DNA of 1,669 bases from Naegleria gruberi (taxonomy: Eukaryota). The translations under genes were made by a program, and so were the position numbers. Below the pieces are notes generated by a model, which ran no database searches, was not told the DNA's origin, and worked only from the letters and a program-made list of their open reading frames with translations. Below are positions 1 to 1,669 of the stretch, piece by piece. The stretch lies in NCBI GenBank assembly GCA_000004985.1, contig GG739353.1. One strand, 5' to 3'. The first letter of the stretch is position 1, and each line of letters starts with the position of its first letter.

Positions 1-150
1 ACTGTTGTTATCATGACCACCAAACACAACCAAATAATCACCATAAATCGTTGATGATTGACCATAACGTGGAGTGATAATCTCATCACTACTAGGCTCC
101 GATTTTCGTTTCAATAGACACGAGGAGTGGAAGTTACGAGCACTTGGTCC
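1..150 (-). CDS. Kelch-repeat protein, downstream reading-frame segment (frame Y, shifted by 1 nt relative to 153-326); continues beyond the left edge
   Basis: Reverse-complement translation of 150..1 gives GPSARNFHSSCLLKRKSEPSSDEIITPRYGQSSTIYGDYLVVFGGHDNNS. It has 50 open codons and shows kelch hallmarks again (P-s-a-R-n-f-H-S-s ... iY-g-d-yLvVFGG). The spacing from the previous R-t-G-H-S is about 49 residues, which is one kelch blade. It is preceded in frame by TAA TAG (plus 151-156). It is not contiguous with frame X unless 1 nt is inserted near 148-155. Confidence 0.6.
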
Positions 151-152
151 CT

Positions 153-326
153 ATTATGTATTGTCTTGTTTTCCCACTTTTGTGAGGAAACATCCACTTG
201 AATGAGATCGTTTACTAGTTCGGAATTGACAAAGCCTCCGAAAAGATAAACTTTATCGTTATGAAAGATACCACTATGACCAGTACGAGAGGTCGAGGCA
301 ACGAAGATGTTAATATTAACATTTTT
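153..326 (-). CDS. Kelch-repeat protein, 5'-proximal reading-frame segment (frame X); possibly a pseudogene or frameshifted
   Basis: Reverse-complement translation gives KNVNINIFVASTSRTGHSGIFHNDKVYLFGGFVNSELVNDLIQVDVSSQKWENKTIHN. This is a textbook kelch blade: P-x-a-R-x-G-H-S..., then v-Y-v-F-G-G, then n-D-l, then k-W. The frame is open from just after an in-frame TGA (plus 327-329) to a TGA at plus 111-113. It contains no in-frame ATG. Confidence 0.6.
309..320. repeat. Perfect 12-bp palindrome GTTAATATTAAC
   Basis: The sequence is its own reverse complement. It lies in the 5'-proximal part of the kelch frame-X ORF and overlaps an out-of-frame ATG on the minus strand (plus 319-321). Confidence 0.45.
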
Positions 327-467
327 TCACGGGGGGTGATGAACTTTGGTTTTCTTCTTCAGTTTTGACTTTTTGTCATTTTTAATAATTTTACAATAAA
401 TTTGTCAATCAGATTTACTTAAAAAACTTTAAAATCTATCTTCTTTTTAAAAGAGACGATTTCCGTT

Positions 468-494
468 AATATTATGGTACGATACCATGATATT
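468..494. repeat. Imperfect inverted repeat: 12-bp arms (aatattatggta / taccatgatatt), 3-bp spacer (cga), 1 mismatch
   Basis: Arm 468-479 against the reverse complement of 483-494 matches at 11 of 12 positions (T473 vs G489). The perfect core is atggta-cga-taccat. This is the most structured element in the intergenic region. Confidence 0.5.
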
Positions 495-716
495 TATTAA
501 TATTCATATGTCATGGGTGATGAAATTAAATTTCATAAAGAAATTAAAAAGTTATTGTTGGCAGTTATCATTAATTAATCTTAAAAAAGATGAGTGAGTA
601 AATTTAAGGAAAGATTTTTAGTACCGTTCATTATAACGCTGATTACAATAGTTTTACCAAAATTAAGACAATAATATCTAAAAATGAAATTTTTAATTAA
701 ATTCAAATTTGATATA

Positions 717-735
717 AATTTAAAAAATTTAAAAA
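717..735. repeat. Low-complexity tandem (aatttaaaaa x about 2) within a longer aaattt-rich tract (about 681-740)
   Basis: aatttaaaaa is directly followed by atttaaaaa. The flanking sequence repeats aaattt and ttaa units. This is typical AT-rich simple sequence. Confidence 0.4.
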
Positions 736-779
736 TGTATCTACTTTTGGAAACAATATTTATTTCAGTTAAAACTTCT

Positions 780-788
780 TATATATAT
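780..788. promoter_or_regulatory. TATATATAT tract (candidate TATA element; orientation and target gene unknown)
   Basis: A (TA)4T run lies about 340 bp upstream of the oligoribonuclease ATG and about 455 bp upstream of the kelch ORF. Such runs occur readily by chance in DNA this AT-rich. Confidence 0.2.
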
Positions 789-1095
789 CAAATAATACAA
801 TATACAACGTGTATTGGGTCCTTGTTTCTTGAAATGTTTCTGTATTATTGTTTATGAGTTGTACCATTAATGTGCCAATAATTAAGCAAAAACGTGACAA
901 TATTTTTTAATAAAAGCAGTATCATCAAGAAGATCTTTTTTGTAAGAAGCTCCTTATGGAAGTAAATTGTACTTTTATTGGTTTGTTATTGTGTGTTAAA
1001 TTTCCAAATGTGAATGCAAAGACGACTCCTTCAACTATGGTTTTTATTTTGAGCATGGTTTTGGAAACTCGTAACAATCTATCAAGATCAAATAA

Positions 1096-1117
1096 TATAA
1101 TAAAAATATAATATTAT
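1096..1117 (+). promoter_or_regulatory. AT-rich TATA-like tract (tataataaaaatataatatta) immediately upstream of the oligoribonuclease ATG
   Basis: It contains TATAAT and TATAA-like hexamers 10-30 nt upstream of the ATG at 1126. It may be core-promoter or 5'-leader sequence. No TSS evidence is available. Confidence 0.2.
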
Positions 1118-1125
1118 TTAAAAAT

Positions 1126-1173
1126 ATGACAACAACTCTTGTACAAGACCCTATTGTTTGGGTTGACATGGAG
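1126..1173 (+). CDS. REXO2: Oligoribonuclease (Orn/REXO2/Rex2 family, DEDDh exonuclease), exon 1 (initiator ATG)
   Basis: ATG at 1126 sits in an A-rich context (aaaaatATGa) with an in-frame TAA directly upstream at 1120-1122. It encodes MTTTLVQDPIVWVDME. The WVDME segment matches the conserved N-terminal Exo I motif of oligoribonucleases (E. coli Orn ...LIWIDLEMTGLD, human REXO2 ...MVWVDLEMTGLD, both recalled from memory). It carries the catalytic D (1165-1167) and E (1171-1173). The exon ends right before GTAAGA. Confidence 0.8.
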
Positions 1174-1223
1174 GTAAGATATAATAGCCACTGACCACAA
1201 TTCACACAATTAATTCTAAATAG
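1174..1223 (+). other. Intron 1 of the oligoribonuclease gene (50 nt, GT-AG, phase 0)
   Basis: Donor is GTAAGA at 1174. A CTGAC branch-point-like motif lies at 1191-1195, 29 nt from the 3' end. Acceptor is AAATAG ending at 1223. Splicing joins ...VDME in frame to MTGLD... at 1224 and rebuilds the conserved D-x-E-MTGLD motif. Without the intron, the exon-2 ORF lacks the catalytic Asp and Glu. Confidence 0.8.
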
Positions 1224-1534
1224 ATGACAGGATTAGATATTGATTCCGATCACATTTTGGAAATTGCAGTCATTATTACTGATGGTAATTTAAATATTAT
1301 TGCACAATTGGATTCATTGATTGTTCATCAGAGTGACTCTGTTTTAGATAATATGAATGATTGGTGTAAACAGCATCATGGTGATAGTGGTTTGACTGCT
1401 GCCGTTCGGAAGAGCACACTCTCCATTCAGCAAGTTGAGGATACAGTCTTGGATTTTGTTAAACACTATGTTGCATCGGAGAGATTGGCTCCATTGGCTG
1501 GTAACAGTGTTTATTGTGATAGATTATTTATGAA
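1224..1534 (+). CDS. REXO2: Oligoribonuclease exon 2 (core DEDDh domain)
   Basis: This matches the supplied ORF 1224..1559 up to 1534. MTGLDIDSDHILEIAVIITDGNLNIIAQ...DWCKQHHGDSGLTAAVRKS...LAPLAGNSVYCDRLFMK aligns along its whole length with Orn/REXO2 (human ...[30 protein letters not shown]...DWCKEHHGKSGLTKAV...LAGNSVHEDKKFLDKY, recalled from memory). It includes the Exo II Asp (GNSVYCD). The ORF's last residues (YVNFLLF, then stop at 1557-1559) have no homology and are read as intron read-through. The preferred exon end is 1534, before GTATGT. An alternative end at 1538 is described in the findings. Confidence 0.75.
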
Positions 1535-1579
1535 GTATGTTAATTTCTTATTATTTTAATAATATTTTAATTATTTTAG
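1535..1579 (+). other. Intron 2 of the oligoribonuclease gene (45 nt, GTATGT...TTTTAG, phase 2), preferred model
   Basis: Donor GTATGT at 1535 is canonical. The acceptor is the pyrimidine-rich tract ttattttAG ending at 1579. Intron length is a multiple of 3, and both flanking exons use the same genomic frame. Splicing removes the in-frame TAA (1557-1559) and joins ...CDRLFMK to [29 protein letters not shown], which restores the conserved C-terminal H-x4-D (Exo III) motif. An alternative with the same intron length is 1539..1583 (donor GTTAAT, acceptor AAG). It would give ...FMKY-EMKRL... but has weak splice signals. Confidence 0.6.
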
Positions 1580-1669
1580 AAAGGAAATGAAAAGATTAGA
1601 TGAATATTTGCATTATAGAATTATTGATGTTTCTTCAATTAAAGAGCTTGCAAGAAGATGGTCACCTGA
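1580..1669 (+). CDS. REXO2: Oligoribonuclease exon 3 (partial, runs off the right window edge)
   Basis: Taking aa (1533-1534) + a (1580) as the phase-2 junction codon, the exon translates as [30 protein letters not shown] and continues past 1669. This matches E. coli ...[29 protein letters not shown] and human ...[28 protein letters not shown] (recalled from memory). It contains the DEDDh His and the final Asp. Confidence 0.75.

Follow-up and report, generated by a model that had tools for sequence, protein, structure and literature searches.

The closest described relatives of the DNA considered here are the kelch beta-propellers of the families PF24681 (Kelch_KLHDC2_KLHL20_DRC7), PF24981 (Beta-prop_ATRN-LZTR1) and PF01344 (Kelch_1), which carry an R-x-G-H-S / hydrophobic / GG / W signature. 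One gene of this kind in Naegleria gruberi, NAEGRDRAFT_63109, encodes the protein P0123 (EFC49114.1, XP_002681858.1, UniProt D2V2T2) and lies on an 850,158-nt scaffold together with the oligoribonuclease (ORN) gene NAEGRDRAFT_30577, whose product is P0292; the two neighbours have the consecutive UniProt accessions D2V2T2 and D2V2T3. A second kind of described system that bears on this locus is the haplotigs and pseudogenes of heterozygous draft assemblies. N. gruberi is reported to be heterozygous in a passage of PMC9928731 that cites Fritz-Laylin 2010, and divergent haplotype contigs are therefore to be expected.

The window that we analyzed is a complete unplaced scaffold of 1,669 nt from the N. 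gruberi NEG-M assembly. It is AT-rich and carries two genes in divergent orientation, whose features are collected in Table 1. Because P0123 and P0292 are encoded on one large scaffold and both are matched in the window, the window, judged from its sequence, is a second copy of the divergent pair NAEGRDRAFT_63109 and NAEGRDRAFT_30577. The minus-strand fragments share the kelch signature, and profile matches and blade signature together place them in the kelch family. They do not, however, make up a functional member, which would have an uninterrupted open reading frame from its start and complete four-stranded blades. This kelch copy is probably a decayed paralogue or null allele of NAEGRDRAFT_63109, possibly on a haplotig, as argued below from sequence comparison.

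Table 1. Features of the 1,669-nt window, with frames given as codon starts modulo 3.
Feature	Positions	Strand	Basis or remark
Degenerate copy of kelch/F-box gene NAEGRDRAFT_63109, 5' part (~107 codons)	1..322	-	tblastn with P0123/P0271/P0127/P0155, DNA and protein alignments, Pfam; cut at base 1
Ancestral ATG (322-320) and codons MLILTSSLP, frame 1 mod 3	296..322	-	P0123 begins MLLTSSLP
Lesion 1: LGQL codons gone, 'CG' left, frame 1 mod 3 to 2 mod 3	294..296	-	net -10 nt vs P0123
Kelch blade 1, TSRTGHSG...KWENKTIHNR, frame 2 mod 3	150..293	-	47/49 vs P0123 residues 13-61
Lesion 2: G3 where the intact gene has G4 (AGG GGA = R-G), -1 nt	149..151	-	frame 2 mod 3 to 0 mod 3
TGA reached without frame correction	111..113	-	reading frame 2 mod 3
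Blade 2 remnant GPSARNFHSSCLLKRKS, frame 0 mod 3	100..150	-	P0123 residues 62-78 (HSP 2)
Lesion 3: junction of 102-nt in-frame deletion, 34 codons NDCSDEMVIFGGKSNGFHNDVWSYRFDTFEWGLL gone	99..100	-	between KRKS (to 100) and EPS (from 99)
Blade 3 start EPSSDEIITPRYGQSSTIYGDYLVVFGGHDNNS, no stop or frame disruption up to scaffold end	1..99	-	tblastn, alignment
Intergenic region, divergent, 24% G+C, AT-rich	323..1125	.	composition; between kelch copy and oligoribonuclease gene
Oligoribonuclease (ORN, RNase_T) gene	1126..1669	+	Pfam RNase_T 96 bits; 3' cut by scaffold end
ORN exons	1126-1173, 1224-1534, 1580-1669 (last cut by scaffold end)	+	spliced product vs P0292
ORN intron 1, 50 nt, GTAAGA...TAG	1174-1223	+	
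ORN intron 2, 45 nt, GTATGT...TAG	1535-1579	+	

The spliced oligoribonuclease product is identical to P0292 at 147 of 149 positions, which confirms its exon-intron structure, and P0292 belongs to the 90% cluster of the window's ORN model. The model deposited for the window's scaffold, NAEGRDRAFT_77014 (P0002, EFC35332.1; 111 aa), is the unspliced open reading frame 1224..1559 and is 100% identical to the window. It omits exon 1 and reads through the second intron into YVNFLLF*, and it needs re-splicing. The intergenic region contains an imperfect direct repeat of 29 nt (419-447 against 720-748, 86% identity), which is probably low-complexity AT-rich sequence. Another homopolymer in which length errors or variation might arise is a run of six G on the plus strand (331-336; minus-strand C6), but this run is noncoding: it sits in the presumed 5' UTR, 8 nt ahead of the kelch ATG.

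Intact relatives of the kelch copy came from a full HMMER scan of 1.84 billion representatives, which yielded P0123 (367 aa) as well as P0127 (292 aa) and P0155 (219 aa) from related organisms. A word-indexed protein search with the 108-aa corrected product gave no match, although P0123, which is in that collection, shares exact runs of up to 34 residues with the query; negatives from this search warrant caution. The assembly also holds a third kelch copy, P0271 (EFC35580.1, partial, from a 7,486-nt N. gruberi contig), which shares a 90% cluster with P0123 and is near-identical to it over about 330 residues. The window copy belongs to the same gene family as P0123 and P0271, and its ORN neighbour is the same as that of P0123 (NAEGRDRAFT_30577).

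P0271 runs on into a C-terminal F-box-like segment (PF00646, 19.6 bits) that is absent from the P0123 model, which ends differently, implying that the 3' end of the latter is probably mis-modelled. A weak C-terminal match to PF00646 was also found in P0273 (22.2 bits), and from these sequences the family architecture appears to be an N-terminal kelch propeller followed by a C-terminal F-box; in the window copy, the F-box region of the intact relatives would fall past the scaffold end. On the Logan contig L003, which carries the P0127 gene, residues 324-380 of P0271 match the opposite strand (1150->980) with 87.7% identity, a pattern that hints at an assembly artefact, a fold-back or inverted join, at the contig end (980-1150).

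Beyond P0123 and P0271 themselves, the close matches to P0123 were short Logan, ENA and JGI contigs, none of which is assigned to another Naegleria species. A synteny check of the ORN loci of N. fowleri (L001) and Willaertia magna (L002) found no kelch gene beside ORN, and these loci are therefore unusable as orthologous references. On this evidence, both the kelch/F-box gene and its position beside ORN look specific to the N. gruberi lineage. Exact look-ups of the 111-aa ORF, P0002, P0123, P0271 and the 35-aa ORF found neither an independent assembly of the locus nor DNA of the intact N. gruberi copies on record. When metagenomes were scanned with the conserved 20-mer AAAGTGGGAAAACAAGACAA, three loci came up, each sharing 23 nt of identity only; kelch homology was absent from all three, and the 23-mers are chance matches.

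The change of frame within the kelch copy is seen directly in translation. The minus-strand frame with codon starts at 2 mod 3 reads NVNINIFVASTSRTGHSGIFHNDKVYLFGGFVNSELVNDLIQVDVSSQKWENKTIHNRDQVLVTSTPRVY, ending ...SRTGHSGIFHNDKVYLFGGFVNSELVNDLIQVDVSSQKWENKTIHNRDQVLVTSTPRVY, and then meets TGA (113-111), whereas the frame with codon starts at 0 mod 3 passes TAA (156-154) and TAG (153-151) and then reads GPSARNFHSSCLLKRKSEPSSDEIITPRYGQSSTIYGDYLVVFGGHDNNS to base 1 uninterrupted. Intact P0123 is continuous across this site (...KTIHNRGPSARNFHSS...). When P0123 was compared with the window by tblastn, two HSPs were obtained, one in frame -3 and one in frame -2 (E = 2e-42 for both combined). HSP 1 pairs P0123 residues 13-61 with window 293..150 (47 of 49 identical, one Leu missing), and HSP 2 pairs residues 62-145 with window 150..1; over the aligned residues, identity to NAEGRDRAFT_63109 is 47/49 and then about 44/50. 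Nucleotide 150 belongs to both HSPs, so the window lacks exactly one G where Arg (AGG) and Gly (GGA) adjoin: relative to the intact gene, AGG-GGA has become AGGGA. A DNA alignment with L003, where the P0127 gene is one uninterrupted ORF, also places a 1-nt gap in the window at AATATTGGACCA, and P0123, P0271 and P0127 each pass through the junction in a single frame, as N-[R/I]-G-P-S-A-R-N-F-H-S-S.

Insertion of a single base restores an exact match to P0123 across the junction. The product with one G inserted scored 68.1 bits against PF24681, 58.9 against PF24981, 49.8 against Kelch_6 and 46.1 against Kelch_1, above the curated cut-off, and the halves on either side of the frame change both match kelch profiles far beyond chance. 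The initial annotation, made from the letters of the window, had described this frame change, and much of its description holds. Translation confirmed that the frame ending ...QKWENKTIHN runs to the TGA at 111-113 and that the alternative frame from 150 is preceded by TAA TAG (156-151), with CCC at 149-151; its proposal that one inserted G would restore continuity is supported by the match to P0123 and by the HSPs that share nucleotide 150. The frameshift-aware comparison that it had suggested, tblastn with P0123, puts the shift at that nucleotide. It had also suggested comparison with the orthologous locus in related genomes; P0123, P0271 and P0127 proved intact and continuous, and the ORN loci of N. 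fowleri and Willaertia magna have no adjacent kelch gene.

The G run is not the only lesion. Relative to NAEGRDRAFT_63109, the window copy has lost net 10 nt after codon 9, a Leu codon, 1 nt and 102 nt, and P0123, P0271, P0127 and P0155 are continuous across all three lesion sites listed in Table 1. The sizes of these lesions relative to the intact N. gruberi copies were deduced from protein, the DNA comparison being with L003 only. The block AAAAAATGTTA at the window ATG lines up with the start codon called for the P0127 gene (L003:273). The first lesion appears against L003 as a 16-nt gap, and the remaining 'CG' precedes ACC-TCT-CGT (T-S-R). As a result of this layout the conserved ATG at 322 and the downstream kelch repeats lie in different frames, and translation from this ATG gives a 35-residue out-of-frame peptide only; from the stop at 329-327 to the kelch motif, frame 2 mod 3 contains no ATG. 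The start codon itself is taken in by a 16-nt perfect palindrome, ATGTTAATATTAACAT (307-322 on the minus strand; inverted self-match 307-325), which holds an extra ATA (Ile) codon absent from P0123.

Farther along, blade 1 has lost one Leu codon beside 218-216 (SELLVND to SELVND), and the third lesion has removed from blade 2 strands B-D, that is, the GG strand, the third strand and the W strand. The deleted 34-codon segment is present in all four homologues; the gap measures 34 residues against P0123 and P0271 and 38 against P0127 by tblastn, and 114 nt against L003. Beyond the junction, window 1-87 has 87% nucleotide identity to L003. Because of the 34 deleted codons, the third R-x-G-x-S motif (PRYGQS) follows the second by 23 residues, compared with 57 in P0123. 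The spacing of about 49 residues between R-x-G-H-S motifs that had been put forward in favour of a continuous gene is therefore correct for motifs 1 and 2 but fails at motif 3. The two frameshifts do not compensate for each other, since three different frames are in use. Compared with kelch beta-propellers, then, blade 2 is down to one strand and the frame is broken twice, making a closed propeller impossible.

These observations can be drawn together in a simple model. NAEGRDRAFT_63109 would have a second, non-functional copy, whose 5' part is the minus-strand kelch sequence; this copy would be either a paralogue that has become a pseudogene or, on a divergent haplotype contig, a null allele. 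The change at 149-151 would be a 1-nt deletion in a G4 run, and would be one of at least three disabling deletions, the others being the net loss of 10 nt after codon 9 and of 102 nt in blade 2; with the three deletions, no kelch propeller would be made from the window copy. The lesions, their positions, their intact counterparts and the common ORN neighbour are all directly observed. Moreover, the copy has two of the properties expected of a pseudogene or null allele: N. gruberi itself has intact genes clearly homologous to it (P0123 and P0271; tblastn E = 2e-42), and it carries several independent disabling lesions that neither introns nor recoding explain (-10, -1 and -102 nt, plus one codon).

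The residues that the window copy retains are also informative. Its 'GG-DNNS' and 'SDE' agree with P0127 and its 'DNNS' also with P0155, while P0123 and P0271 have in common the derived forms 'DDNNS' and 'GDE'. Retention of these outgroup-shared states implies that the window copy is a separate lineage and does not stem from poor reading of the main allele. Three replacements are also unique to it: T for V/I/F in SRxGHS, where the homologues carry V, I or F, and A to S in GQSATIYG and Y to H in GGYD, at sites where all homologues agree. The amino-acid identity of the kelch part is about 94%, compared with 99% for ORN, and this higher divergence fits relaxed constraint on the kelch sequence. 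We infer that the lesions probably exist in the genome and are not sequencing or cloning artefacts.

How well does the alternative of a sequencing or assembly artefact fare? On this reading, the genome would have G4, and one G would have been lost through an error of base calling or consensus in a 1.67-kb Sanger scaffold of low coverage. The scaffold is indeed unplaced, only 1,669 nt long and probably of low coverage, with every lesion less than 300 nt from a scaffold end; the lesion at the G run is a single-base change in a homopolymer, about 150 nt from the end, and inserting one base gives the exact P0123 match at the junction. Nevertheless, even with the G run corrected, the ATG remains in the wrong frame and most of blade 2 is still gone, so that the gene stays dead, and the 10-nt and 102-nt deletions are not explicable as base-calling errors. 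Local sequence quality looks adequate, because the final 99 nt run to the scaffold end without a stop or frame disruption and the ORN half has correct splice sites and 99% identity, and the ancestral states held in common with the outgroups point to a real, distinct copy. We consider such an error unlikely. The several lesions make a pseudogene or null allele much likelier than a lone homopolymer error, and it is here that the initial annotation went astray: its set of explanations was the right one, but it treated the G run as the lone lesion and missed the 10-nt and 102-nt losses and the Leu codon.

A short spliceosomal intron across the frame change, for example 143->97 (47 nt) or 143->82 (62 nt), is a very improbable explanation, although not for the reason given at the outset. 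The initial annotation held that the only possible GT-AG intron was 27 nt long and kept the frame, which is wrong: there are 15 frame-restoring GT-AG pairs, each of at least 20 nt. Several of these are 41-62 nt long, comparable to the 50-nt and 45-nt introns of the ORN gene, and the product of 143->82 aligns on PF24681 with no net gaps (residues 11-86 to profile 49-125). Its conclusion that no intron is involved holds because the intact homologues encode the region continuously. The putative intron is coding in P0123, P0271 and P0127, as GPSARNFHSSCL[LVW]KRKS, and all 15 candidates would remove homologue-encoded sequence, GPSARNFHSSCL.KRKS and/or VDVSSQKWENKTIHN, so that none of them is credible as an intron; the P0127 gene is a single uninterrupted ORF over the region. 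The candidates also look unlike the real introns of the window, with 34-47% G+C compared with 9-30%, and with weak donors (GTGCTC/GTAACT) and GAG acceptors in place of GTAAGA/GTATGT donors and TAG acceptors. The 7 of 15 spliced products with Pfam scores reached 42.6-57.7 bits, about 10 bits or more below the 68.1 bits of the frameshift-corrected product, and splicing would in any case leave the 5' frameshift unrepaired. Production of a full-length protein by programmed -1 ribosomal frameshifting or other recoding at AAU-AGG-GAC has a single point in its favour, the meeting of two kelch-coding frames at the G run, and its probability is close to nil. No X XXY YYZ slippery heptamer is present at CAU AAU AGG GAC, the downstream 96 nt fold like shuffled sequence (z = -0.12), and the junction is single-frame in all intact homologues; because the upstream frameshift and the 34-codon deletion are also present, recoding at the G run could not yield a functional protein. 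Recoding, ranked last from the beginning, was rejected on the combined strength of the absent slippery site and downstream structure, the single-frame homologues and the other lesions.

Within the preferred reading of a decayed copy, a haplotig with a null allele and a duplicated pseudogene are equally plausible. The window resembles the haplotigs and pseudogenes of heterozygous drafts: it is tiny and unplaced, duplicates a locus of a large scaffold, and differs from that locus by about 1% in one gene and by indels in the other; it departs from the haplotig picture in that P0271, a further copy, is also in the assembly. A more specific proposal, which we put forward tentatively, is that the scaffold may be a true second haplotype of the kelch-ORN locus in strain NEG-M, on which one allele of a lineage-specific kelch/F-box gene decayed through three deletions while the linked ORN gene stayed intact.

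Overall, the decayed copy is nothing unusual for a heterozygous draft assembly; it points to no new mechanism and opens no long-standing question. Its importance is for annotation hygiene. The scaffold is redundant with the locus on the 850-kb scaffold and is no evidence for recoding or for a new gene, and its kelch fragment is best annotated as a pseudogene or null allele of NAEGRDRAFT_63109. If the scaffold is a real haplotype, it would add modestly to what is known of allelic decay in N. gruberi, and the loss of the kelch/F-box allele would be a case of gene loss confined to one allele in an amoeba that is heterozygous and propagates mostly clonally.
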